Assembly: GCA_022823465.1 (NCBI GenBank)
Contig: JAJEHX010000032.1
Span: forward strand, 10,340 to 74,339
DNA from: Candidatus Latescibacterota bacterium
GTDB taxonomy: Bacteria > JAAXHH01
Length of the DNA stretch: 64,000 nt
Direction: 5' to 3'
Made by a program: the position numbers and the translations under genes. The notes beneath the pieces are model-generated. The model worked only from the letters and a program-made list of their open reading frames with translations. It was not told where the DNA came from and searched no databases. Positions 9,724 through 61,270 of this stretch are shown here, piece after piece (within the stretch, counting starts at the first letter, position 1; each line of letters opens with the position of its first letter).

Positions 9724-10773
9724 ATGCAAACGCCGGGAACACCGACCCTGCCCATGCTTCGTATCCTGCTCGGCTCCCAGCAAACGGGACTGATCCTCGT
9801 CATCCTGCTGCTCGGTGTGGTTCTCTCCGTTTTCGCGGGGTACCACGTGGACCGCGCGACAGGCGATCTCGTCAACAACTTCCTGAATTCACGCACCCTG
9901 ATGCAGACGGCCACCGACGCCAGTTTCTTCGTGATCATGGCGGTCGGAGCAACCATGGTCATCATATCCGGGGGAATCGATCTTTCGGTCGGTTCGATCT
10001 ACGCCCTTTCCGGTGTAATGACCGCCATGGTGTTGCGGTCCGTCGCGCCGGACAGTCCCGTCGCGGTGGTCCTGCTGGCCGTTCTGGTCTGCGTGAGTCT
10101 CGGCCTGTTGTGCGGCCTGCTGAACGGCGTCATGGTGGTCGGACTTCGCGTCCATCCCTTCATCGTCACCCTGGGTACGATGTGGGTTTTCCGGGGCACT
10201 GCCTTCGTGATCAGCGAAGCGGAGAGCATACTCGTGCCGCAGTCCCTGACCGACGCGATCAAGCTGTCCTTCGGTTCCGACGCGCTCTATCCCATGCCCA
10301 TGATCATCATGCTCCTGATCACCGCCGCCGGCGCCGTGTACCTGTCCCGAACGGTCATGGGCCGCCACATATTCGCCGTGGGCGGCAACCTGGAAGCCAG
10401 CCGGTATGCCGGTCTGAGAATCGACCGTATCCTGGTAGGCGTGTACGTGGTTTCAGGACTCACCGCGGGTATCGCCGCGCTGGTCGGCAGCAGCTACTAC
10501 GGTTCGGCCTCCTGTGCCGACGCCACGGGATACGAACTTTACGTCATCGCCTCGGCGGTTGTCGGCGGCGCCAGCCTGCGCGGCGGCCGGGGAAGCGCGG
10601 TCAACGCCATGCTCGGGGCCATGCTGATCGTCCTGATCAGACAATCCATACGCACCCTGCACCTTGACCAGAACTACGAATGGGTCGTGATCGGTTGCGC
10701 GATCATCATCGCCGTGGTCCTCGACCAGGTGAACCGCCGGCTCACGGCGCGCAAACTGGCCGGTGCGGGTTAG
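9724..10773 (+). CDS. Sugar ABC transporter permease (RbsC-type)
   Basis: 349-aa polytopic ORF of the ribose/branched-chain permease type. Adjacent to a matching SBP and a double-ATPase. Confidence 0.85.
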   Translation: MQTPGTPTLPMLRILLGSQQTGLILVILLLGVVLSVFAGYHVDRATGDLVNNFLNSRTLMQTATDASFFVIMAVGATMVIISGGIDLSVGSIYALSGVMTAMVLRSVAPDSPVAVVLLAVLVCVSLGLLCGLLNGVMVVGLRVHPFIVTLGTMWVFRGTAFVISEAESILVPQSLTDAIKLSFGSDALYPMPMIIMLLITAAGAVYLSRTVMGRHIFAVGGNLEASRYAGLRIDRILVGVYVVSGLTAGIAALVGSSYYGSASCADATGYELYVIASAVVGGASLRGGRGSAVNAMLGAMLIVLIRQSIRTLHLDQNYEWVVIGCAIIIAVVLDQVNRRLTARKLAGAG

Positions 10774-10838
10774 ATCCACGACGCGTCAGGCCGCTTCAGA
10801 TATGACGCGTCAGACCACTTCAGAAAGGAACGAAATCG

Positions 10839-11885
10839 ATGATGGCATGTAAAAGACGTCTGGAAACCCTGGTCCTGTCGGTCCTGGGCGCGTTCGTTTT
10901 CGGTTCGGGTTGCGGAGAAGCCGCGCCTCCCGACGACAACCGGCTCGTGATCTCCATGATCGCCAAGAGCACGACGAACCCTGTGTTCCTTTCCTCCCGT
11001 ACCGGGGCGGAGGCCGCGGCCGGCGAGTTGTCGGCCCGGCACGGCATCGACATCGTGATCGACTGGCGTACGCCGCCGACGGAGGACGGCCAGGTTCAGG
11101 CGCAGCGTATCGCCCAGGCCGTGAACGAAGGGGCCGACGTGGTCCTGATCTCCTGTTCGGACGCCGCCAAGGTAACTGGCGCCATCAATGACGCGGTGGA
11201 CCGGGGCGTTCCGGTCATGACCTTCGACAGCGACGCCCCCGATTCCAGGCGATTCGCCTTCTTCGGGGTGGACGACATCAAGACCGGTGGGCTGATCATG
11301 GGAGAGTTGGCCAGGGCGATGAACGGCAAGGGCCGCGTGGCCATCCTCGCGGGAAACCAGAACGCGCCGAACCTGCGCAAACGCGTGGAAGGCGTCCTGC
11401 AGAAGGCCGCCGAGTACCCGGATATCTCGATCGTGGGGACCTTCTATCACATAGAAACCCCCCAGGACGCCGCCGCCGAGGTGGTGCGGGTAAACAATGC
11501 CTACCCGGATATCGACGGATGGGCCATGGTGGGCGGATGGGCGCTGTTCACCCAGTCCCTGCTGACCGACCTGGACCCCGAGCGCATGAAGATCATCTCT
11601 GTGGACGCGCTGCCGCCCCAGCTGACCTACATCGAGCAGGGCATCGTACCCGTGCTCTGGGGCCAGCCCACCTACCTGTGGGGGTACGAATCGGTCCGCC
11701 TGATCGTCGAGAAGATCCACCTGAAGCAAGACGTCCCCGTCATCAATCCCCTCGAACTGGTCCACGTATCGCAGAATAACCTCGGCGAATGGGCGAAGAT
11801 GCTCCAGGGATGGGGATTCACGGACGTGCCTGAGCGGTACCTGCGGGCGGATGATTCGGAGGACCCGCCGGCCTCGGATGAGTGA
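10839..11885 (+). CDS. Sugar ABC transporter substrate-binding lipoprotein (RbsB-type periplasmic binding protein)
   Basis: Lipobox-like FGSGC. Type-I periplasmic binding protein look. Confidence 0.8.
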   Translation: MMACKRRLETLVLSVLGAFVFGSGCGEAAPPDDNRLVISMIAKSTTNPVFLSSRTGAEAAAGELSARHGIDIVIDWRTPPTEDGQVQAQRIAQAVNEGADVVLISCSDAAKVTGAINDAVDRGVPVMTFDSDAPDSRRFAFFGVDDIKTGGLIMGELARAMNGKGRVAILAGNQNAPNLRKRVEGVLQKAAEYPDISIVGTFYHIETPQDAAAEVVRVNNAYPDIDGWAMVGGWALFTQSLLTDLDPERMKIISVDALPPQLTYIEQGIVPVLWGQPTYLWGYESVRLIVEKIHLKQDVPVINPLELVHVSQNNLGEWAKMLQGWGFTDVPERYLRADDSEDPPASDE

Positions 11886-11971
11886 CCGATCCGGACGCAC
11901 CGGGCCTTTTGACCTCGAGAACCTGATCAGGTAGCGTCGCTCGGATCGCGCCGGAAACCACGGATAACCTC

Positions 11972-13471
11972 ATGGACCACAATACGCCTGATGCATATAT
12001 AGCCTTCGACCGGGTCACCAAGCGGTTCCCTGGTGTGACGGCCCTTGACGAGGTGACCTTCGGGATCGAAGCGGGTACCTGTCACGCCGTGGTCGGCGAA
12101 AACGGCGCCGGTAAAAGTACACTTGGGCGGATACTGACCGGTATCTACGGAATGGACGGCGGCCGGATACGCGTGGACGGCCAGCCCGTGCAGTTCTACG
12201 AACCGCGGGACGCCCTTGATCTGGGGATCGGCATGGTCCACCAGGAACTCGCGTTCTGCGAGAACCTGTCCGTCGCCGAAAACCTCTGCCTCGGCGCCCT
12301 GCCCGGCGGGGGAGGGTTCGTCTCCGATCGACGGATGGAAGCCCGGGCCCGGCAAATGCTGGAGGCGGTTGAAGCCGATCTGGACGTGGGAACGCCCATT
12401 GGCGATCTGCCCGTCGCCCAGCAACAACTCGTGCAGATCGCTGCGGCCCTTGGCAGCGGCGCCCGCGTGATCGTCTTCGACGAACCGGCCAGCAGCCTGT
12501 CCCACGTGGAAGCGGAACGGTTGCGAGCGCATATCCGGCGCCTCAAGGCGAAGGGCGTGACGTCGATCTACATTTCCCACGACCTGGACGAGATCTTCCG
12601 CCTTTGCGACGCCGTGACGGTGCTTCGCGACGGCCGGCACGTGGCTACCCGCCCGGTCGCCGACCTCGACCGGGCCACGCTGATCAACCTGATGATCGGG
12701 CGTACTTTCGAAGCCTACTTCCCGTCTCACGTGGAGACCGAACCCGGTGACGAGATGCTTTCCGTGGACCGGCTCGCCAGTCCGGGGAAATTCGACAACG
12801 TGTCTTTCTCCGTGCGGTCCGGGGAAGTACTCGCCCTGGCCGGCCTGGTGGGCGCGGGACGGACCGAAGTGCTGCAGGCCGTGTTCGGGCTGGACCCCAT
12901 AGCCGCGGGGCAAATACGTGTCCAGGGCCGGCCGGTGAGCATCCGGCATCCGATCGACGCGATGCGAAGGGGCATCGGGCTCGTGCCCGAAGACCGCAAG
13001 CGATTCGGTCTCGTCCTTTCGCTTCGCGTGGAACAGAACATAGGGCTGCCCACCCTGGACCGCCGCTCCGGCTTCGGGTGGATCCGCGGAAAAAGGGAAG
13101 AAGACCTGGCGCGGGAATATGTCAAACGGCTATCGGTGCGGCCGGACGACGTCCGGTATGAAACGGCGGGCCTGTCGGGCGGGAACCAGCAGAAGGTGGT
13201 CCTGGCCAAGTGGCTGGCCGCCCGATGCCCGGTCCTCCTGATCGACGAACCCACCCGGGGCGTGGACGTGGGCGCCAAGTCGGAGATGCACGCCCTGATC
13301 GACCAGCTGGCTCATGAGGGCACGGCCATCGTGCTCGTGTCGAGCGAATTGCCGGAGGTGCTCAACCTGTCGACGCGGATCCTTGTGCTTCGATCCGGGC
13401 GTATCGCGGGGGAACTGTCCCGCGAAGAAGCGGACCAGGGCGCGGTGATGCGAATGATGGCGGGGGTGTGA
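11972..13471 (+). CDS. Sugar ABC transporter ATP-binding protein, two fused ABC domains (RbsA-type)
   Basis: Walker A GENGAGKST and GLVGAGRTE. Signature LSGGNQQKVVLAKWL. Confidence 0.9.
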   Translation: MDHNTPDAYIAFDRVTKRFPGVTALDEVTFGIEAGTCHAVVGENGAGKSTLGRILTGIYGMDGGRIRVDGQPVQFYEPRDALDLGIGMVHQELAFCENLSVAENLCLGALPGGGGFVSDRRMEARARQMLEAVEADLDVGTPIGDLPVAQQQLVQIAAALGSGARVIVFDEPASSLSHVEAERLRAHIRRLKAKGVTSIYISHDLDEIFRLCDAVTVLRDGRHVATRPVADLDRATLINLMIGRTFEAYFPSHVETEPGDEMLSVDRLASPGKFDNVSFSVRSGEVLALAGLVGAGRTEVLQAVFGLDPIAAGQIRVQGRPVSIRHPIDAMRRGIGLVPEDRKRFGLVLSLRVEQNIGLPTLDRRSGFGWIRGKREEDLAREYVKRLSVRPDDVRYETAGLSGGNQQKVVLAKWLAARCPVLLIDEPTRGVDVGAKSEMHALIDQLAHEGTAIVLVSSELPEVLNLSTRILVLRSGRIAGELSREEADQGAVMRMMAGV

Positions 13472-13531
13472 TTAAGAAAGAGAAAAACCGCCAACCAGTA
13501 CAAATCTCAGTAAGTTTAAGCGCAGGTGCAA

Positions 13532-14281
13532 TTAGTCATGAGGGACCAAAAGTTGGTAATCATTACTACTCATTGGTTCATGTTTACCCCAATCGCCCCG
13601 CATTTCGATCAAAACACGTTGTTTCAGAAATGCGGTGTTGGAATTCATGCGTGCTACTTCTGCTTCGAACATGCCATGTGAGTTAGCCATAGCCTTGGTC
13701 AAGTCATGTACCAAATATCGAGGCGCCCATCCAATCATGTGATAGTCTGTCGTTTGAATCTGAACCGCTAACTGAGTTGCAGGATTGGTCAGTTCTAACG
13801 TAACATACAACTCTTCTTCTTCACTTAGTCTATTCAACCGAGTTTTTGCTTCTTCATTGATGTATCGCCAACCGTGTAAGAAAAACCTGCAGGTAAATCT
13901 CCCGTCTGCGTGCTTTGTGATTTTTGGAAAAACTTCGTAGGTATCTGTAACCCGGGAGCCACCATTTCTGGCCAGGATCTCGATGGGATTTGCCTTCTCT
14001 GGTAAATCCAGACTTTTCAGATAGTCAGAAAAATCCGGCCTTGCGGGATTCATCACTCTGTTTTTAAAAAGTGGAAATAACTCCGAAGAACGATAGTCTC
14101 CTTTTAAATCAGGAAAATCCAGTAAAGGAGTAAATCCTTCTTTCTTTGCTTTTTTGGCGCCTTTGATATAGCGAAATCGATACAATGATTGTTCGACATT
14201 CGCATCGAGCTGGCCCACCGGAAACCATGCGCGGCTAGGATTTCTGTCTTGCCAAGCCAGAAACAAAGTTTTCTCACTCAT
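13532..14281 (-). CDS. HipS-like (HipA N-subdomain-like) / HIRAN-like fusion protein, putative antitoxin partner of the upstream kinase
   Basis: The N-terminal half resembles the HipA N-terminal subdomain (LFLAWQD..WFPVGQL..YRFRY ... LFPLFKNRV ... ILARNGGSRVTD). The C-terminal half is HIRAN-like (LELTNPATQLAVQI...HMIGWAPRYL). AGGAG lies 9 nt upstream of the ATG. The start overlaps the upstream reading frame as ATGA. AT-rich. Confidence 0.65.
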   Translation of the reverse strand: MSEKTLFLAWQDRNPSRAWFPVGQLDANVEQSLYRFRYIKGAKKAKKEGFTPLLDFPDLKGDYRSSELFPLFKNRVMNPARPDFSDYLKSLDLPEKANPIEILARNGGSRVTDTYEVFPKITKHADGRFTCRFFLHGWRYINEEAKTRLNRLSEEEELYVTLELTNPATQLAVQIQTTDYHMIGWAPRYLVHDLTKAMANSHGMFEAEVARMNSNTAFLKQRVLIEMRGDWGKHEPMSSNDYQLLVPHD

Positions 14282-52527: not shown

Positions 52528-53493
52528 ATGCATCCCGTCTACCTGAACCACTTGCTCGTCTTCGTCGACCGGGACACCTACCGCGCCCTGTCCGCGTCCG
52601 GGTTTCTGAACGAACACTTCGCCTGTTCTGAGGAGCGGACGACCCACGACCAGGCCACGGGCATGTCCTGGACCGGCCGATACTACTACGGCCGCCAGAC
52701 CTATTTCGAGTTCATGAATCCGGACAAGACCTCCTGGTCGCCCCGGGACGGCCTGGCATTCAGCATTGAGTCGGAGGGCGGGGCGGAAGAGCTGGCGCGC
52801 CGGCTGAAACAGGGCACGGATCGGGAAGTGAGGCGTTACAAGCGCAACAGAAGGTACCAGGACCAGGACATTCCGTGGTTCTGGTCTGTCGAGATCCCGC
52901 GCCGGGACGACGCTCGGTTGATCTCCTGGGTAATGGAGTACGATCCTGGTTTCCTGAATCAGTGGGCGCCCGACCTGCCCCCGCGCCAGACAGTTTCGGA
53001 TCAGGCAGAAATTACGCGTAGCGGTTTCCTCACGCGCTATCGCTCGGCCATCGGGGACGATCTTGACAACCGGCTTTTCCGGGATGTCACCTCGGTGACC
53101 GTAGCCCTGCCGCCCAACGAGGCCGATCTGCTCGAAGCGGAACTGGGGTTTTACGGATACCTCAAGTTGGGACCGGCTGGTTCCGCGCGTGCTAAGACAG
53201 GCGATGCGGATCTCAGGAAGACCGCCGAAACCGCGGACGGGCCGGCTGCTTCCCCTGAACGGACGAAGTTCCGCGGACCCGATCTCGATATCGTGGTGGA
53301 GCGGATTCCTCCGGACGAAGACCGCGATGGACCAAGGCAGGTTGGAGCGAACGGCGGAATCGCCGGCATCACGGCCTTCACCATGGAAACCCAACCGGTC
53401 TCCGTGACTACGACCCACACCTTTGGCCCTGCGTGCAGCCTTACTGTGGACAGGACAGGTAAGGCGGCCTGGTTCTTTCAGTCACGGCTTTGA
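52528..53493 (+). CDS. Hypothetical protein
   Basis: 321-aa ORF with high-GC codon usage like its neighbours, starting 3 nt after the sulfatase stop. No motif recognised with confidence. Confidence 0.6.
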   Translation: MHPVYLNHLLVFVDRDTYRALSASGFLNEHFACSEERTTHDQATGMSWTGRYYYGRQTYFEFMNPDKTSWSPRDGLAFSIESEGGAEELARRLKQGTDREVRRYKRNRRYQDQDIPWFWSVEIPRRDDARLISWVMEYDPGFLNQWAPDLPPRQTVSDQAEITRSGFLTRYRSAIGDDLDNRLFRDVTSVTVALPPNEADLLEAELGFYGYLKLGPAGSARAKTGDADLRKTAETADGPAASPERTKFRGPDLDIVVERIPPDEDRDGPRQVGANGGIAGITAFTMETQPVSVTTTHTFGPACSLTVDRTGKAAWFFQSRL

Positions 53494-53608
53494 ACAAAGC
53501 TTAGGTTGGGAGTTACAAGTAGGTAAAATCAGAAATACACAATTGCTGTTCAGGCAGTACGAATTCGTAATGATCAGATGGTTCCATAGAGAAAAACCAC
53601 ATCGAGTT

Positions 53609-53977
53609 CTAGTTATTGAGCCGATCCTGATTGTCTGTTAGTACCTGTTCGAGTAACTCCAGATCCTCGCAGACAGCGTTCCACCCAGTACGCCAGCGAG
53701 AATCAAGTGACTCACTCGGCTGAAACAATGAACGCGATTTTGATAAGACCGATGTGCAGATCTGTAGGATTTCTGAGGCTATAGGATCCTCAGACTGCAT
53801 GCGTGTGATGTCTTCCGGCATCAAAGGCTCGGAGACACCCGCCCGCGCCGCCGCCAATTGACCTACACTTAGAACAGACCGCTTCAGTCTTGCTCGTGAT
53901 GCATAAGCAGAATCAATGTCCTCTACTGAACCTTTTGTAAACGCGATCAGACGAAGGCAATCGTTCAGGTCTGGCAT
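53609..53977 (-). CDS. Small acidic hypothetical protein (cassette gene C)
   Basis: 122 aa. GGAGGG lies 9 nt upstream of the ATG. The start overlaps the tail of the NTase ORF by 65 nt. AT-rich. No His residue, so no HEPN RX4-6H motif. Confidence 0.6.
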   Translation of the reverse strand: MPDLNDCLRLIAFTKGSVEDIDSAYASRARLKRSVLSVGQLAAARAGVSEPLMPEDITRMQSEDPIASEILQICTSVLSKSRSLFQPSESLDSRWRTGWNAVCEDLELLEQVLTDNQDRLNN

Positions 53978-54653
53978 AAACCAATCCCTCCAGTTTACTG
54001 AGCATTTTACTCATAATATCAATCACGTGCTCTACGTCGTTTCTTGAAACCTGATCTAGCACGCCACATTTTCTCTCCTCAAACAAGCGGAATGAGTGTG
54101 CTAGTTGTAGTTTGCTCAAAACCTCGGGCATCTCAAGAAACACCGCTGCCCGGGTGATACAATCCCTGCCAAAAGTTGGAACCCCTACCAAATAGCAAGC
54201 GAGAACTGAGGCATGTCTCGCAACGCCTCCAAGCACTGCAAGCTCAAAACACGGCGGCAGTCCAGCAGCTAAGCCAGATTGGACATCATTTATAATAGAT
54301 CTGAATCCCTTTAAATCACGACCAGCCAACTGATATGGCGGAAGCGAACCTAGTAATTTGGACATGCGTGCGTGAGCATCCCCTTCGTAGAGCAATGTTG
54401 ATGCCTCATTTGCTATGTGGTGAAGAAATAGGGATCCATATCTACTCATGGACTCTATTTCCTCCCAAGTATAGTGACTGATCTGTAGCAGATCCTTAGG
54501 CAATTCAGGAACCAAAGCGGCGATTTCGTCCACATTCGGCATATCGTGAGCAACCGTTAGTACATCGATATCACTGAAACGGTCGGCATCACCTCGGGCG
54601 CGAGAACCGTAGAGTATAATGGCACGACATTGAGTCATCGTTTGAACATCCAT
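53913..54653 (-). CDS. Pol-beta/MNT-type nucleotidyltransferase with helical C-terminal domain (cassette gene B)
   Basis: LYGSRARGDADRFSDIDVL (GSxxRG...SDxD). About 150 aa of helical C-domain, like the KNTase_C/HEPN-like layout. An alternative ATG at 54638 forms ATGA with the upstream stop. Confidence 0.75.
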   Translation of the reverse strand: MDVQTMTQCRAIILYGSRARGDADRFSDIDVLTVAHDMPNVDEIAALVPELPKDLLQISHYTWEEIESMSRYGSLFLHHIANEASTLLYEGDAHARMSKLLGSLPPYQLAGRDLKGFRSIINDVQSGLAAGLPPCFELAVLGGVARHASVLACYLVGVPTFGRDCITRAAVFLEMPEVLSKLQLAHSFRLFEERKCGVLDQVSRNDVEHVIDIMSKMLSKLEGLVYARPERLPSSDRVYKRFSRGH

Positions 54654-55558
54654 CGCACCAGCAGTGTAATCAATAAACCGAACGATACGAATCCCAAAAA
54701 TGCTTCAATCGTTAGTATGATGCGTGCAAGTGTACCAGTTGCACTTACGACATTAACCGAATCTACGGATATAAACGTCGCCACGCTCAACCAAATGACA
54801 TCACTAATACCTAATGGTTCTGACGACTGATTCAACGAATCATGAACAAACCAGAGTAAGAGAGGGAATACGAGAAACGCCAGGATAACTATATTTCGGA
54901 TAAGGATTATTGGCTTTTCACCATGCCCCCAAACTATATCATAGAAGTAGCTTGTGATGAGTTGAGCAAATGCAGAGAGCCTGCGTAAACCGGAGTAATG
55001 GCGTCGATACCATTCGCTCTTGCTTACAATAGCCGCTTTTAGGTGTTCTTTCTTAGCTTGTATAGCTGCTAGACGGTATTTGCGCCTGTCATTCTGAAGT
55101 CCAATGGCGTCCGAAGCGATCGCCAATCTGTCCGCCAATTCTTCGCGGAGATTTGGCTCTCGAGGTAATGAATGTTCCATTTCATCAAATGGTAACACAC
55201 AGTTTTCGAATCGAGAATACCTAAAATCGCATGACTGTACTATCACCTTTGGAAAATCGCAACTTAGGAACTTGCAACCAACAAACGTGCTTCCAGTCAG
55301 TTCCGATTTTCTAAAGTAACAACTCAAAAACGCACAGTTTATGAAACGACAGTTTCTGATATCTGCTTCCTTAAAACTCACATTGGCAAACGTACAATGT
55401 TGAAATTCAAGATTCTCAAGTGTACTGCAATCTTTGCGATCGGCAGCAAAGATCAGATCATGAGCCGGCGTTGTTGCTACTGGCCAGTCTCCAGTTTTTC
55501 TACCTACGATATACTCATCTGATCCAATCATATTTCCAACTCTTCCGATGCAGAGCAA
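54635..55558 (-). CDS. Pentapeptide-repeat protein fused to a 2TM ion-channel-like pore domain (cassette gene A)
   Basis: 16 consecutive pentads with a hydrophobic residue (mostly Phe) at every fifth position. C-terminal TM1, pore-helix and TM2 layout with ISVDS in place of a K+ filter. The ORF track gives a TTG start; an alternative ATG lies at 55531. Confidence 0.75.
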   Translation of the reverse strand: MLCIGRVGNMIGSDEYIVGRKTGDWPVATTPAHDLIFAADRKDCSTLENLEFQHCTFANVSFKEADIRNCRFINCAFLSCYFRKSELTGSTFVGCKFLSCDFPKVIVQSCDFRYSRFENCVLPFDEMEHSLPREPNLREELADRLAIASDAIGLQNDRRKYRLAAIQAKKEHLKAAIVSKSEWYRRHYSGLRRLSAFAQLITSYFYDIVWGHGEKPIILIRNIVILAFLVFPLLLWFVHDSLNQSSEPLGISDVIWLSVATFISVDSVNVVSATGTLARIILTIEAFLGFVSFGLLITLLVRWMFKR

Positions 55559-55726
55559 AATGCTAAGCTACTTGCTGGACTCCTCGGAACTTTATACGAA
55601 TCGAACATTTGCATACCCGTCAAGATGAAATCGACACTCTACCTCGTGAGTCTCAGGAATAATCAAGTACAATTTGTTTGCTTAGTCAACCGTCAGCTTA
55701 ATTGTAAGAAATATCGCAATATCAAG

Positions 55727-55894
55727 GCAGAACGCTCCATCGGAACCCTCAAATACGAGGAGGTCTACCTCCACGAGTATGAGCCATTGGAATATGTCCA
55801 TTCACATACCGATTAATCCATCGACAAACTCTACAATCGTAATCGCTTGGACTCGTCCTTTGACTACAAACCACCTGCCGAGTACGAGCAAATT
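55727..55894 (+). pseudogene. IS3-type transposase C-terminal remnant
   Basis: AERSIGTLKYEEVYLHEYE...(TAA)...IDKLYNRNRLDSSFDYKPPAEYE resembles the end of rve-type IS3 transposases. In-frame stop at 55814-55816. No upstream catalytic part. Confidence 0.6.
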
Positions 55895-56348
55895 ATGACA
55901 TCATTATATATCTGTAATTCTACTAGTTTCACATGTATGGATGTAATACACAATACATAGACCAAATCAATCATTATCAGTGTTTTAGCACACAGCCGTA
56001 TAGGCGAAAACTTCGTCGGGTCGCCAATCTATTTACGCTGAATTTCCTGTCGATTCAAACTAGCGCCAATACAACGCTGACATTAGTAGTTAGAAACGCA
56101 TTTTACTTTGTGTCAATTGCAGAAATCAGTTAATATCCTAAACGATGGATTTAAGATATGAGTCTAGTCTACACACGATTCTTATCAAGTAACCGGGGTA
56201 TTGCATAATTGTGAGTCAGCATTGGTTGAAATGGTTTAGGTTTGGCCAATTCAGAACACTTCATGTCTGTATGAGGCCTAAGTCTATCACACGTAAGTTA
56301 TTGAAACCAACACGTCAGTAGTAGAACGGGTAAACTGTCACCAAATTG

Positions 56349-57386
56349 ATGGTATTTCTGGATACAGATCAGATGAATAAAACGGTGCCTCTCACCACGT
56401 TCGTACCAGAACCATTCCGAAACCTGAAAGATCCCTCGCGCGACTTACCACGGATCGCAAAAGACTCGCTCGGTATGTCTATGATCTCGGCTGCCGTGGA
56501 ACAGATTCCTACCCATCATCAGCTGTTGCTCGGAGATGCCCGTCGTGCCGTACTATCCGATGAATCAGTCCACCTTGTACTTACGTCGCCACCGTATTGG
56601 ACCCTTAAGCAATACCGGCGTTCTAAAGGGCAGTTAGGCTGGATCACACACTTCGATGAGTTCCTCGAACAGCTTGATGCAGTGTGGAGTGTATGCCATC
56701 GCGTACTTGTACCTGGAGGACGGCTCATTTGCGTGGTTGGTGACGTCTGTCTTTCGCGACGCAAAAACGATGGCCGCCATACTGTAGTACCCCTGCACGC
56801 TGCCATTCAGGATAGATGTAGAAAAATCGGGTTTGACAATCTTGCGCCTATTATATGGCACAAGATTGCAAACGTAGCACATGAAGTGGAGCGTGGAACA
56901 GGCGGTTTCTTGGGCAAACCGTACGAACCCAATGCCGTGATTAAAAACGACATAGAGTTCATTTTGATGCAACGTAAGCCTGGTGGTTATCGAAAACCAA
57001 GCGTCGCCGCGAGGACGCTGAGTCTTTTGTCCGAGGAGAGTTTTAAAACACAATTTCGTCAGATATGGACCGATATAGCTGGTGCATCGACCCGCGACCA
57101 TCCTGCCCCTTTTCCAGTCGCCTTGGCAGATCGTTTAGTCCGGATGTTCAGCTTTGTAGGAGACACGGTACTTGATCCTTTTACGGGAACTGCTTCGACC
57201 CAGATTGCAGCGGCCAAGTGTGGCCGTAACAGCATCGGTATTGAAGTCGACCCTGTCTACTACGGGAAGGCTGTAGATCGGTTAACAAATAAAACCACTA
57301 GCCTACTAAGAAAAGTTGAAATACGTACCGGGGAGATCGAAACGAAAAGGGAATTACCTGTAGCTGGAAGGGAGGTAAGTGCTTGA
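56349..57386 (+). CDS. DNA methyltransferase, beta class (N4-C or N6-A; N6_N4_Mtase type)
   Basis: Motif IV SPPY (LVLTSPPYW) precedes motif I (DPFTGTAST), which is the beta-class order. Confidence 0.85.
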   Translation: MVFLDTDQMNKTVPLTTFVPEPFRNLKDPSRDLPRIAKDSLGMSMISAAVEQIPTHHQLLLGDARRAVLSDESVHLVLTSPPYWTLKQYRRSKGQLGWITHFDEFLEQLDAVWSVCHRVLVPGGRLICVVGDVCLSRRKNDGRHTVVPLHAAIQDRCRKIGFDNLAPIIWHKIANVAHEVERGTGGFLGKPYEPNAVIKNDIEFILMQRKPGGYRKPSVAARTLSLLSEESFKTQFRQIWTDIAGASTRDHPAPFPVALADRLVRMFSFVGDTVLDPFTGTASTQIAAAKCGRNSIGIEVDPVYYGKAVDRLTNKTTSLLRKVEIRTGEIETKRELPVAGREVSA

Positions 57387-57985
57387 TATCTGCCCAGGAG
57401 GCTGTAGACGATCTTTACCGAATCGCTGTCGCAGAAGAAAAGGCAACTTCGACCGCACGACTTGACGTATTGGCAGATTTCTGCGTGCAGGAGGTTAATC
57501 GGCGAGGTCTTAATGACGTCGAGAAAGAAGCCACTATTCCTGGTGCAGGACGTGAAAAAAAATGGGACGTGGCCTGGTGCTATGACGGCAAGTATCGGCT
57601 CGGGGTCTCGCTGAAGTCAATCCTGAAAAACCTCGGTGGTACTGTTCCCAATCGCATAGATGATATGATCGGCGAAGTCACAAATGCTCAGCTTTACTCG
57701 CCGGAGATTGCGATTGGTTATATCATGGTCTTCAATGTTGCCGAGGACAACTATTCTACTAAGCACGGTTCTACGTGGTGCGATCTCTTTCGAAATCGAA
57801 TTCGCTCTCTGTCGGGCCGACGACCTCCATCCTGGACTACTGGGACAGTAGAAGATTTCGTGTTGGTAGAAGTGGATTTCAATACGGGTCCATCTATTCT
57901 ACGTACATCGCAGCCTTTCAATGAATTCTTCGACACTATAGTTGATCAGGTCAGTTTAAGGAATCCCCAAGCCATTTCCCCTTGA
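57383..57985 (+). CDS. Putative type II restriction endonuclease (PD-(D/E)xK-like)
   Basis: TTG start overlaps the MTase stop (TTGA), with GGGAGG 7 nt upstream. Possible catalytic D...SxK (KKWDVAW...LGVSLKS). Assignment rests mostly on position. Confidence 0.5.
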   Translation: MISAQEAVDDLYRIAVAEEKATSTARLDVLADFCVQEVNRRGLNDVEKEATIPGAGREKKWDVAWCYDGKYRLGVSLKSILKNLGGTVPNRIDDMIGEVTNAQLYSPEIAIGYIMVFNVAEDNYSTKHGSTWCDLFRNRIRSLSGRRPPSWTTGTVEDFVLVEVDFNTGPSILRTSQPFNEFFDTIVDQVSLRNPQAISP

Positions 57986-58409
57986 GAAGCCCAAGACTGC
58001 AGAATGCCGCGCGGATTGAAAAGCCTTTACCAAGTAAGTCGCGTAACGTTTCCCTCAGTAGCTTCGTCTCTCCAAAGTATCATCGTATTCTTGCCTATGA
58101 GAGCCAGCCGGACAGCTTGAGCTTGAACAGGGCGATGACCGGATATACCCAGAGCCGCGGCAAAGTGAGTAATGCCATAATCATTTGCATCCATGCCGAG
58201 GCAGTGGGAGAGCAACGCAACCAGGTCCATCTGGGAAATACTCTAGACGATTCAGCCCCCTGGATCTCTGGCCCGAAGTTCGATTCGGAAGACCGTGTCG
58301 ATGCGATGAAGTCTAAGATGCCTGTCCGCATTCCGCCCCGGGGCACGCCCTGCAAAGGTGCCTGTTCAGAAGGTGGGTTGCCGCGAGCAGGACGCCCCCC
58401 GGAACCGGC

Positions 58410-59858
58410 TCATCCAGCGCCACGCACCCTTCCAAGACCGATCCAGGCTCCCGCGCTCACCAACCCGACCAGTACGGTCAGCGTGGAAAGCGGTACCGCG
58501 GCGCGCCGGCTCACGTCGCTCAATGACTCGTCTGCGAACTGAAATTCCGGTACCATGGAAAGCGCGTCCGCCGACATCTTCTCTCCGGCCAGAATCGCCG
58601 GCACAAAGAAGGAACGCCACTGATCTGCGAATTCGCGCACCTGAGTCTGAAACCGGGCGAACCGCGCATCACCCGTTCCCGCCGCGTCGATAAGCAGTTC
58701 CTGGACCAGGAGCGCCGGGGAAAGGAACCTGTATCGACGGACCAGTTCACTTTGCTCCTCGCGCCGTATCTGGTGTTGCGCCGACACCTCCTCCAGGCGC
58801 CGGTTGACTGCTTCCGTGGCGGCCCAGGCGAGGGCCGCCCGATTGGATTCATCCGCAACCGCGCCGGCGGCGAGTTCCGGGTGGTCCTCGAGGTAGCGGG
58901 CAAGCAGCTCGCTGCGGCGGCTTACCGCATCGTTCGAGGCTTCGCGCTGGGCAGTGATCATCTCCACACGGGAGGGCAGCGGGTGAAAGAGGCCCGCGGC
59001 AATGTTGATTGCGGCCGGCAGCACCACCACCAGCACGAGCCAGGCACCCACCAGCACCGTGGCGTTCCATGCGGAAGACCTTCCCAAACTGTTTACCCAT
59101 GCGGTAAGCGAGAACCAGAACAGCGCGTATACCGTCAGTGCCGCACACCACAGCAGCACCCGGCCGGAGGGTTCTGACGATCCGAAGCTCCCGGCGATCA
59201 GTATGCCGAGTACCGACACCCCGATGGCCACGGCCATGACCAGCAGTGCCCGGAAGGCGAGTTTCGTGGCCACGATGCGGCGCGCCGACACGGGTTGGGA
59301 AAGCGTCAGCGCCAGGGTGCCTTGCTCTCGCTCCCCCGATAACACGTTGAAACTCAGGGCCAGCACGAGAAGAGGCAGCAGGTAGATCGCCACGAAGGCC
59401 AGATCGAATCGCCCGACCATGAGGTTGAGGGGATTCTCCACCTCGCCGTTCTGAAGGAAGGTGGATTCGTTGGTATTGATGCTGATATCGTAGTAGTACG
59501 GCAGGAGATCGCTTTGCCCCACCGCCAGGGCGGTCAGGGGACCGGGTTCCAGCACGACGGATCGGGCGCCCCGTGCTCCACCCATCACGTTGGCGGCGCG
59601 GGGGTCGCGGAACGGAGAGGACGGACGGCTTCCGTTTTCAATGGCGGCCAGTTCGCGTTTCAATCCGTCGGTCCGTTCGACATTCCCGTCGCGCACGACC
59701 TGCACCGTGCGTTCCTGGAAACGGACCCAGGCCATGCCGTTGGCCAGCGCATAGGCGAAGAGGACGACAAAGAGCGGAAGAACAACCCGCAGGATTCGGC
59801 CTGCGGCGAGAAGCCGCCACTCATTTACCAGGATGGTCTTCGTAGTCATGGTCCCCAT
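58410..59858 (-). CDS. ABC-2 type transporter permease (DUF3526-like)
   Basis: N-terminal TM, a large loop, then a C-terminal cluster of TM helices. Start ATG at 59858, 2 nt after the upstream stop. Confidence 0.7.
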   Translation of the reverse strand: MGTMTTKTILVNEWRLLAAGRILRVVLPLFVVLFAYALANGMAWVRFQERTVQVVRDGNVERTDGLKRELAAIENGSRPSSPFRDPRAANVMGGARGARSVVLEPGPLTALAVGQSDLLPYYYDISINTNESTFLQNGEVENPLNLMVGRFDLAFVAIYLLPLLVLALSFNVLSGEREQGTLALTLSQPVSARRIVATKLAFRALLVMAVAIGVSVLGILIAGSFGSSEPSGRVLLWCAALTVYALFWFSLTAWVNSLGRSSAWNATVLVGAWLVLVVVLPAAINIAAGLFHPLPSRVEMITAQREASNDAVSRRSELLARYLEDHPELAAGAVADESNRAALAWAATEAVNRRLEEVSAQHQIRREEQSELVRRYRFLSPALLVQELLIDAAGTGDARFARFQTQVREFADQWRSFFVPAILAGEKMSADALSMVPEFQFADESLSDVSRRAAVPLSTLTVLVGLVSAGAWIGLGRVRGAG

Positions 59859-59860
59859 GA

Positions 59861-61270
59861 TCAGGCCACCTCCGCGCGACGAACGGCGACTGTAACGGCA
59901 ACAAACGCACCGGCCAGCCACAGCCCCATCAACAGGAGCGACAGGGCCCGGTTCCGCAGGACCCATCCCACCGTCGGGGCGTCATATCGAAAGGGCGGCA
60001 TCTGCGACCAGAGATCGGCCGCGGCGAGGTAAACTTCACCGGTACGGGAGTTCTCGGTCATGTCAACATTCAAGCGCTGCACCAGTTCCCGGCGGTATTG
60101 CTCCGCGGCGGCGGCGAAGTGCCGGTGCTGTTCGACATCGGTACCGGCCAGGCCCATGGAAAGCGTCCGAACCGCCAGCAGAGGCGCCGTGACCGCAAGC
60201 GCCTCGTGTACGTATCCCTGGCGCTCGAAGGCGTTCCACAGGGCACCGTAATTCCGGTCGAAGATCTGGTTGCCGAACTCCTCGCTCTTTTGCAGAAAGA
60301 CGCCAATGGCGTTGATCGGAAGGTCTTCGACGTTTTCCAGGTTGTACTCATCCAGGAGCTCCTGCGTTGACTCGGCACGGTCGGGACGCACGATGCCGCC
60401 CACCCCGTCGGCCATCTCCTTGCCAAGGGTCTGAGCGAACTCCACCGCCGAGGGCGTGGGGTACAGCCACTTCGACAGATCCACCGCCACACGCGGGGCC
60501 ACGAGGCCGTTAACCACCCAGATGGCCAGCAGGACCACCAGTGCGGTCCGCGCCGAAGGCGCCCTCGCCGAGACGGCGAGAGACAGCCCGATAAACGTCG
60601 CGAAATAAACCAGGTAGACACCGGCCAGCACAGCGCCCCGGATCACCGGGGATGCCGCCGGTCCGGGGCTTCCCATGACGATGGCGGCCGCCCCGACAAG
60701 CGCCGCGGGTATCAGAAGCAGCGCCAGGGCTGCGGCTACGCCGAGGGCCTTGCCCAGTGCGAGCTCGAGGCGTCCGACGCCCGTAGCCAGCAACTGCCGC
60801 AGCGTGCCTCGTTCCCGCTCCCCGGCGAGGGCGCCGAAGGTCAGAAGGATGATGAGCAGCGGCACCAGGTGCTGAAGGACCTGCGCCGCCGTCAAGGCGC
60901 CGATGCGTTGCGCGGGTGTCGCGTCCTGCGCCGGTCGCAACAGGAAATCGTTCTGTCTGTGGGCTTCCAGCAGTACCGACGTCCCCGTATAGGAATCCAC
61001 GCCCTCATCGACAAAGGACAGCGCCAGCCGGGGCTTGAAGGCGTAGACGCCGTAGTGGGCCGCGGAATGGGGGTTCTTCTCGCCCTGCTATTCCCAGTGA
61101 TCACGGGCGGTGGCCTGTGCGGCGGTCAGTTCCTTCTGCGCATTGCGCGCCTGGACCCATCCGGTTCCCAGCGAGACCAGGAGCAGGACGCCTACCAGCG
61201 CGGCGCACCATCGGAAGCGTCCATCCCGCACCATGTCCATAAACTCTTTGCGGATTATATGCCTTATCAT
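59861..61270 (-). pseudogene. ABC-2 type transporter permease interrupted by one in-frame TAG
   Basis: ORFs 61270-61088 and 61087-59861 are in the same frame. They read ...ATARDHWE(TAG)QGEKNPHSAAHYGVYAFKP... continuously. AGGAG upstream of the ATG at 61270. Confidence 0.65.

Follow-up and report, generated by a model that had tools for sequence, protein, structure and literature searches.

A probable three-gene variant of the Hailong module, with HalA-like and HalB-like genes and a constant small third gene, in a Candidatus Latescibacterota contig

Three minus-strand open reading frames (ORFs) at positions 53609-55558 of a 64,000-nucleotide stretch of a Candidatus Latescibacterota contig (JAJEHX010000032.1; the whole stretch analysed is called the window) form a compact cassette, which encodes an effector-like membrane protein (gene A), a nucleotidyltransferase (NTase; gene B) and a small protein of unassigned family (gene C). 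On detailed analysis it was found that this cassette is a three-gene variant of the Hailong system, in which genes A and B are distant relatives of HalA and HalB. An earlier description made from the letters of the DNA alone (the sequence-only reading) had given the same ORFs with overlapping junctions, an ATGA between A and B and 65 nt between B and C, and on reading the sequence again both the coordinates and the junctions agree with it. The features of the cassette are the following.

54635..55531, minus strand: gene A, HalA-like effector of 298 aa, starting at the ATG at 55531
55193..55456, minus strand: pentapeptide-repeat beta-helix of gene A (residues ~26-113), 16 pentads in about 4 coils, Pfam Pentapeptide_4/_3
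54920..55189, minus strand: helical linker of gene A (residues 115-204), joining the beta-helix to the membrane domain
54644..54913, minus strand: channel domain of gene A (residues 207-296), with a first transmembrane helix (TM1), a pore helix and a second transmembrane helix (TM2), of K-channel/Kir type
53913..54638, minus strand: gene B, HalB-like nucleotidyltransferase of 241 aa, its ATG overlapping the gene A stop
53986..53991, minus strand: GGAGGG ribosome-binding site for gene C, within the end of gene B and 8 nt before the gene C ATG, read directly
53609..53977, minus strand: gene C, 122 aa, family unassigned, third gene of the cassette

The TGA of gene A (54637-54635) and the ATG of gene B (54638-54636) overlap as ATGA, and gene B ends at 53913 while gene C starts at 53977, giving the 65-nt overlap. 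The GGAGGG upstream of gene C lies where it had been reported, although its spacing from the ATG is 8 nt and not 9. For gene A the mechanical ORF start is a TTG at 55558 (54635-55558, minus strand); since its homologues (n=125 in the database, with 95-97% of the query covered) are almost all 298 aa long, the ATG at 55531 is taken as the true start.

Hailong, according to Tan et al. in Nature in 2025, reportedly consists of an ion-channel effector, HalA, and a nucleotidyltransferase, HalB. The references used here were the PDB entries 9nyi and 9dbh-j and the NCBIfam models NF051894 (HalA) and NF051895 (HalB). Hailong is a two-gene system in which HalA is gated by DNA (PMC13434031), and HalA itself is built from a pentapeptide-repeat cytosolic domain and a K-channel-type pore (PMC13586616). 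In a 2026 paper the system was not detected at all by DefenseFinder and PADLOC (PMC13586616).

Gene A contains 16 consecutive pentads, reading as the sequence-only reading had quoted them, and scores above the cut-offs of Pfam Pentapeptide_4/_3, with a weak match to Ion_trans_2 (E 0.0021, aa 229-305). An AlphaFold model of it, for which 26 homologues were used (pLDDT 87.8), has beta-strands spaced 5 residues apart between 37 and 109, linker helices at 115-121, 126-143, 146-169, 173-178 and 181-204, and a membrane part with TM1 at 207-228, a pore helix at 242-254 and TM2 at 267-296. The order of pentads, helical linker, TM1, pore helix and TM2 proposed earlier is therefore recovered by Pfam and by the model. 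Conserved motifs of the linker are PREPNLREEL and R.YRL. The family pore is without a GYG filter and has the consensus ..T..PVD.., and the family profile matches KirBac3.1 over 208-296 (E 0.003).

When the gene A model was compared with the PDB using Foldseek, the top and sole full-length match was HalA 9nyi_A (E 1.6e-9, probability 1.00, 331 aligned columns on a 333-residue target), at a TM-score of 0.43-0.47 and 14% identity. The other significant matches covered the beta-helix alone, which also resembles Qnr, MfpA and AlbG. At the sequence level, residues 55-156 of 9nyi_A align to gene A 24-126 (E 1e-6), and the NCBIfam HalA model matches 26 of 26 gene A family members, again across the beta-helix only; gene A scores 25.5-25.8 bits against NF051894, under the 250-bit cut-off, and none of the 26 members comes near it. 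As a control, the HalA of a Sulfitobacter plasmid (locus L027) scored 266.6 bits with the same model, and it also matches the Qnr/MfpA models. Gene A is, judging from its predicted structure, a HalA-like effector with a full-length structural match to HalA. The pentapeptide beta-helix had been put forward as a feature that sets the cassette apart; this did not hold, as the solved HalA aligns at that very region and L027 HalA hits the Qnr/MfpA models, and a pentapeptide beta-helix on a channel is the standard HalA build. The beta-helix of gene A may be the equivalent of the DNA-binding 'crown' of HalA.

Gene B carries the GS...DxD motif of nucleotidyltransferases, is above the cut-offs of Pfam NTP_transf_2 and Polbeta, and belongs to a family in which G11, S12, D23 and D25 are invariant. 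Its AlphaFold model (pLDDT 90.0) has an NTase domain at 1-100 and a helical domain at 105-222, and the pol-beta/MNT-type enzyme with a helical C-terminal domain that had been proposed is thus borne out by Pfam and the model. The tail at 223-241 is non-conserved and disordered, the last 10 residues having pLDDT below 50; it includes a 16-aa Tyr-containing extension which only the closest relatives share, most homologues being 225 aa long.

Three independent comparisons place gene B nearest to HalB. Amongst NCBIfam families HalB is the best for gene B (E 8e-14, 51.7-51.8 bits, over the N-terminal 80 residues) and for 27 of 27 family members (best E 2.6e-15). The family profile searched against PDB sequences finds HalB 9dbj (E 3.7e-9) and 9dbh as the best matches, and the alignment with 9dbj continues beyond the NTase core to a motif common to both, G[SD]LF..H...E (GSLFLHHIa.E). 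With Foldseek, ranks 1-11 for the gene B model are all HalB chains (E 1.2e-6 to 1.9e-5, TM-score 0.50-0.59). The proposal of a Hailong-like cassette thus stood, with gene A matching HalA structurally over its full length and its partner gene B having HalB as best match by NCBIfam, PDB profile and fold. Gene B is, however, HalB-like without being a HalB equivalog: its 51.7-51.8 bits against NF051895 lie below the 190-bit cut-off and 0 of 27 members come near it, whereas controls from L025 and L027 score 220.8 and 185.1 bits. Clustering of gene B with aminoglycoside-type enzymes had been named as a possible outcome, and at sequence level it is not with ANT(4') (15 bits against a 350-bit cut-off); against the ANT(4'), ANT(9) and AadA models of NCBIfam it reaches 11-16 bits, with cut-offs of 193-505. 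Using hhalign, gene A aligned with HalA over the beta-helix only and gene B with HalB over the NTase core only, so that structure was needed for the full-length similarity of both pairs to be seen.

A pattern scan with one genome per species returned 22 loci, and in 21 of these the homologues of A, B and C were found in order on one strand, across about seven phyla, with tblastn E-values down to 1e-121 (A), 1e-79 (B) and 1e-42 (C). The phyla include Nitrospirota, Proteobacteria, Acidobacteriota, Chloroflexota, Gemmatimonadota and Actinomycetota; amongst the hosts are Nitrospira, Rhodanobacter, Kineobactrum, Desulfobacter, Terriglobia, Dehalococcoidales and Alphaproteobacteria, as well as Gemmatimonadota/Longimicrobiales, Gaiellaceae, Solirubrobacterales and Mycolicibacterium/Mycobacterium. 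Genes A and B mostly overlap by 4 nt (ATGA), and genes B and C by 4-47 nt in intact loci, the 65 nt of the window being an extreme that is due to the 16-aa extension of gene B in the nearest relatives. A-B-C is a conserved, translationally coupled unit, far beyond chance, and the co-occurrence across genomes which the sequence-only reading had asked after is present in the same order in 21 of the 22 loci.

Gene C gave no match in Pfam, NCBIfam, PADLOC or PHROGs, and its profile searched against PDB sequences found a coiled-coil peptide as sole weak match (E 1.5), in agreement with the earlier remark that it resembles nothing recognisable. It nevertheless forms a sizeable family of 155 clusters at 50% identity among 1.84 billion representative proteins, nearly all of them stand-alone proteins of 100-135 aa. 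In an alignment of 117 diverse members, all 116 of the aligned sequences have Tyr25 (codon 53905-53903 in the window), and R28, R30, R33, S88 and W95 are each conserved at 96% or more; the motifs are AYxxRxRLxR and QPSExLDxRWxxGW, and no conserved His and no Rx4-6H motif is seen. With a profile hidden Markov model (HMM), gene C was found downstream of B in L028 (~11534-11914), L029 (~11552), L033 (~9552), L034 (~9549) and L035 (~9525), at E 1e-34 to 1e-39. Public gene callers omitted it in 5 of 6 checked loci, probably through its overlap with gene B; in L030 it was called. The addition of a third gene, proposed from the window alone, is therefore conserved in 21 of 22 loci and in further contigs.

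Gene C as a split-off piece of HalA or HalB was considered and rejected, since hhalign found no similarity to either. Apparent B-C fusions were also set aside as Rosetta-stone evidence: P0292 and P0353 have out-of-frame-looking linkers, P0279 seems to read through into the gene next to it, and all three are regarded as artefacts of frameshift or assembly. At the HalB-type loci L025, L026, L027, L031 and L032 the HMM found gene C to be absent, and a search of the literature available to us found neither a third Hailong gene nor a pentapeptide-related Hailong variant.

The C-terminal residues of the two kinds of enzyme differ in a way that may be related to gene C. Five HalB-type reference proteins end in GFSY, TFDY, SDGY, SINY and TPYG, with Tyr at the C-terminus in four (...Y) and next to it in one (...YG); three of the five were scored (146.6, 185.1 and 220.8 bits, of which only 220.8 passes 190) and two came from tblastn, unscored. 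In the gene B family, 0 of 65 full-length proteins have a C-terminal Tyr. A Y occurs within the last three residues in 3 of 65, and the position five from the end alternates between Tyr, His and other residues. The Tyr-bearing tail of the window gene B had drawn attention earlier as a HalB-like trait, but its two tyrosines are not conserved even among the closest relatives; it is a local accident, and because it is not conserved it is not usable as a HalB priming tyrosine. HalB uses a tyrosine of its own as the primer for oligo-dA synthesis (PMC13434031). Two near-invariant tyrosines, Y10 and Y56, are retained in gene B; Y56 is probably structural, as it aligns with a Tyr in 2 of the 3 HalB-type proteins of the joint alignment. 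The pattern is thus a complementary one: HalB-type loci have the terminal Tyr and no gene C, whereas the cassette has no terminal Tyr and always has gene C with Tyr25. Because of this pattern, gene C may supply the hydroxyl in trans or may handle the ligand.

Some HalB-type enzymes were seen in other company. The plasmid-borne HalB-type NTases at L025 3044-4675, L032 2044-3675 and L031 1318-3660 have no adjoining HalA; those of Rhizobium (220.8 bits, above the cut-off) and of strain NT-25 follow a 'WYL domain-containing protein', and that of Klebsiella follows a DUF1883 protein with a WYL gene nearby. As these plasmid-borne NTases do not sit by HalA, HalB-like enzymes may serve other partners.

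Taken with the published system, the likenesses of the cassette to Hailong are an effector with a pentapeptide-repeat cytosolic domain, a helical linker and a K-channel-type pore of two transmembrane helices; an enzyme with a Pol-beta NTase and a helical domain having the G[SD]LF..H...E motif in common; an effector gene placed first and overlapping the NTase gene, as in the validated L027, where HalA is followed by an overlapping HalB; and mobile or defence contexts. It differs in its 14-17% identity to the solved HalA and HalB, with scores far below the family cut-offs, and in a gene A that, at 298 aa, is some 40-70 aa short of HalA (338 positions in the model, 371 aa in one protein). At the pore, the signature is ..PVD.. 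in the cassette and ..FGYTN.. in L027 HalA, and gene B lacks the C-terminal Tyr (0/65) that HalB-type proteins have at or next to the C-terminus (5/5). Gene C is obligatory here, but absent from the five HalB-type loci and from the published two-gene description (PMC13434031). What is new relative to Hailong is therefore the pairing of A and B genes that fall below the family cut-offs, a gene B without the terminal Tyr and a constant gene C with an invariant Tyr25.

The reading which we favour, at a probability of roughly 0.7, is that the cassette is a guard module resembling Hailong and requiring a third gene. It would be a self-contained, horizontally mobile toxin-guard module of three genes, from the same stock as Hailong. 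Gene A would be the effector, presumably a tetrameric membrane protein with a K-channel-type pore under a cytosolic pentapeptide-repeat and helical domain, which, if left free, would open and depolarise the cell. Gene B would constitutively make an inhibitory nucleic-acid ligand, by analogy with Hailong a short single-stranded oligodeoxyadenylate, and this ligand would bind the cytosolic domain of gene A and hold the channel shut. A phage nuclease or some other insult that removes the ligand would then release gene A, and growth would be arrested before the phage completes its cycle. Gene C, in the version we prefer, would take over a step that HalB does alone, either by offering Tyr25 as acceptor or primer of the nucleotide chain or by carrying the ligand to gene A. 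In this scheme we infer the identity of the ligand, the gating, the phage trigger and all the roles given to gene C.

Several observations weigh against this reading. The scores of A and B (25.8 against 250 bits and 51.8 against 190 bits) and the 14-17% identity mean that function may have diverged, and the TM-scores to the HalA and HalB structures are 0.43-0.59. The ANT(4')/KNTase and AadA structures come close behind HalB for gene B (E 4e-5, TM-score about 0.53), and as they score almost as well, the fold of gene B taken alone is not HalB-specific. DNA synthesis by gene B, DNA binding by gene A and protection from phage are taken over by analogy from the published system, and the role suggested for gene C draws on correlation between sequences. 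Tyr25 of gene C apparently lies at the start of a predicted helix and not on a free tail. The priming Tyr of HalB is reportedly the C-terminal one, which is backed here by sequences only. Ordinary metabolic and housekeeping genes are also among the 131 neighbouring ORFs listed from 20 loci. No relatives of gene A or of the cassette were found in 2.9 million IMG/VR viral contigs. PADLOC made no system-level call on the cassette, with gene B matching only the NTase-domain candidates PDC-S09 and PDC-M05A; the sequence-only reading had allowed for a tool assigning the cassette to a characterised system, and with PADLOC this was not the case.

The particular version in which gene B builds an oligonucleotide on Tyr25 of gene C, or hands it to gene C, and a C-DNA conjugate locks the channel is possible but doubtful. 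If true, an immune DNA signal produced by a Pol-beta nucleotidyltransferase would have a 'terminal protein' dedicated to it. The reverse transcriptases AbiK, DRT9 and DRT1 carry out protein-primed, template-independent synthesis of homopolymer or random DNA as a regulatory adduct (PMC13275509), a logic that the cassette could share only if Tyr25 of gene C is the primer. AbiK, DRT9, DRT1 and HalB, mostly reverse transcriptases, prime on themselves, whereas in the cassette a Pol-beta NTase would do the polymerising and a different protein, of 122 aa, would be the putative acceptor. It is also conceivable, though rather unlikely, that the system is of Hailong type with gene C outside signal making, as a trigger sensor or adaptor tuning the A-B guard or as an operon regulator, and with gene B priming in some other way. 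A small, apparently helical protein standing alone in 155 clusters, with a coiled-coil peptide as its sole weak PDB match and with conserved Arg and Trp that would suit binding to nucleic acid or protein, would be in keeping with such a role, and Y10 and Y56 of gene B remain as other near-invariant tyrosines. However, Y56 is probably structural, the strict co-occurrence and translational coupling of C with B point to a fixed stoichiometry rather than to regulation, no helix-turn-helix or other DNA-binding family was detected for gene C in Pfam or NCBIfam, and such a role would not account for the complementary loss of the terminal Tyr.

In type VII toxin-antitoxin (TA) systems MntA poly-AMPylates a tyrosine of HepT. 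By analogy, gene B might (oligo)AMPylate gene C at Tyr25, or gene A, and the modified protein would keep the channel quiet with no DNA polymerised. This we regard as distinctly unlikely, even though all 27 gene B family members match the NCBIfam MntA antitoxin model (best E 2.5e-8), the minimal nucleotidyltransferase (MNT) antitoxin structures 7bxo, 7ae9 and 8xeo are among the gene B fold matches, and gene B lacks the terminal Tyr of HalB where gene C has an invariant Tyr flanked by three conserved Arg. The likeness to MntA-HepT lies in a Pol-beta/MNT-type NTase with weak MntA sequence matches and, by analogy, in the logic of an NTase that neutralises a toxic partner by moving a nucleotide to a tyrosine hydroxyl. 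Yet HalB ranks above MntA in every comparison (51.8 against 26.6 bits), and with the MntA model NF047752 the 26.6-27.3 bits obtained are below the cut-off of 60. Gene B is a two-domain, HalB/KNTase-like protein of about 225 aa, about twice the size of a minimal MNT (about 100-140 aa). There is no HEPN toxin, no HEPN family being found on A or C and no conserved His or Rx4-6H in gene C; the toxin would instead be a membrane channel, and a HalA-like one, HalA being gated by DNA (PMC13434031).

Highly improbable is a non-immune origin, with a housekeeping or stress channel regulated by an NTase or an ANT-type NTase lying beside a Qnr-like pentapeptide protein. The ANT models give 15 bits against cut-offs of 350 and the Qnr models about 31 against 240, although the gene B fold does match ANT(4'), AadA and LinB (TM-score about 0.5), the beta-helix of gene A matches Qnr, MfpA and AlbG, and some neighbours of the cassette are housekeeping genes. 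Gene A shares with those proteins the right-handed quadrilateral beta-helix, at residues ~26-113. Unlike these gyrase-targeting DNA mimics, which are soluble dimers of about 200 aa, it has only ~4 coils joined to a channel, and is modelled as a membrane channel and not as a soluble Qnr dimer; membership of the Qnr/MfpA group is countered by scores of about 29-32 bits against cut-offs of 240-500 and by the C-terminal pore. The patchy distribution over many phyla, the unconserved flanks, the copies broken by insertion sequences (IS) at L003, L005 and L023, and the AT-rich island with restriction-modification (R-M), Lamassu and TA neighbours also count against a non-immune reading. Membership of CBASS was likewise not found, with no PADLOC CBASS model match and no CD-NTase among the gene B fold matches.

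The favoured reading of a guard module with a required third gene would have several consequences. Hailong belongs to a very small group of immune systems that rely on a constitutively produced nucleic acid as inhibitory 'guard' ligand, and the cassette would extend its range well past the curated NCBIfam HalA and HalB cut-offs, into a widespread environmental clade across many phyla in which gene C alone makes up 155 clusters at 50% identity. The complementary arrangements offer a natural experiment on how a DNA signal is started and delivered to a channel, and on who provides the primer. The cassette is an annotation gap as well, because in 5 of 6 checked loci the public gene predictions lack gene C.

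The flanks of the cassette are not conserved between loci. Breaks by insertion were found at L003 (6760-8460), L005 (7514-8532) and L023/L024 (11244-14118), where the insertions interrupt A, split B from C or replace B; those at L023/24 are DDE_3 transposases, and in L023 the HMM found gene C past the IS. These independent insertions suggest occasional inactivation of the cassette. A type I R-M system lies directly upstream of the cassette in L029, and L033 is a clear defence island, with a Lamassu-like Pfam set (CTD7, MC3, LmuB_C; 10555-14261) about 1 kb downstream and a PIN/MazE pair and an IS upstream. GmrSD and IS elements are neighbours in L023, whereas L028 has an integrase and AlpA upstream and YoeB/YefM downstream. 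The neighbouring ORFs listed above include type I/II R-M parts, MkoA-like helicases, integrases and transposases. Judged from a plain listing, the neighbourhoods fit a self-contained module that moves and frequently ends up next to defence genes. The defence-island setting expected across genomes was therefore found in part: defence and mobile neighbours are frequent, but plain housekeeping genes occur too.

The cassette of the window is part of an AT-rich island, with a GC of 0.40-0.50 (about 53500-58000) where the flanks have 0.61-0.68. Next to it, and outside the system, are the following features.

55712..55876, plus strand: C-terminal remnant of an IS transposase (rve integrase core), Pfam rve_3
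56346-57386, plus strand: N6/N4 DNA methyltransferase of 346 aa, Pfam N6_N4_Mtase E 6e-33, PADLOC MTase_II E 3e-55
57383-57985, plus strand: putative restriction enzyme of 200 aa, with weak matches to XhoI (E 0.08) and REase_II (E 0.019)

The rve_3 remnant (E 2.2e-5; 24.5 bits with the stop bridged, just below the 26.5-bit cut-off) is degenerate, has an internal stop and separates the cassette from the R-M genes; neither terminal repeats nor a complete transposase were seen. The methyltransferase and the 200-aa ORF overlap by 4 nt and probably make up a type II R-M pair (56346-57985) within this AT-rich island. Both the R-M pair and the IS remnant, noticed earlier beside the cassette, were recovered with Pfam and PADLOC, but the R-M genes are ruled out as members of the system, as the window methyltransferase and restriction genes have no tblastn match in the other 22 loci (L001-L022). 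N6_N4 methyltransferases were also seen flanking the cassette in L034 and L035.

No Rfam family was found in 53000-58600, no convincing direct repeats flank the island boundaries, and the promoter and terminator scans gave results at chance level. No tRNA marks the island boundary; an ARAGORN call of tRNA-Arg(CCT) at 59876-59973 (minus strand, 98 nt) lies over the junction of the ABC-2 permease ORFs 58410-59966 and 59861-61000 and is probably a false positive. The ORF at 57982-58542 (plus strand, 186 aa) has no family match and is likely not a gene; it spans the transition from AT-rich to GC-rich DNA, overlaps the end of the opposite-strand ABC-2 permease gene and marks the right edge of the island.

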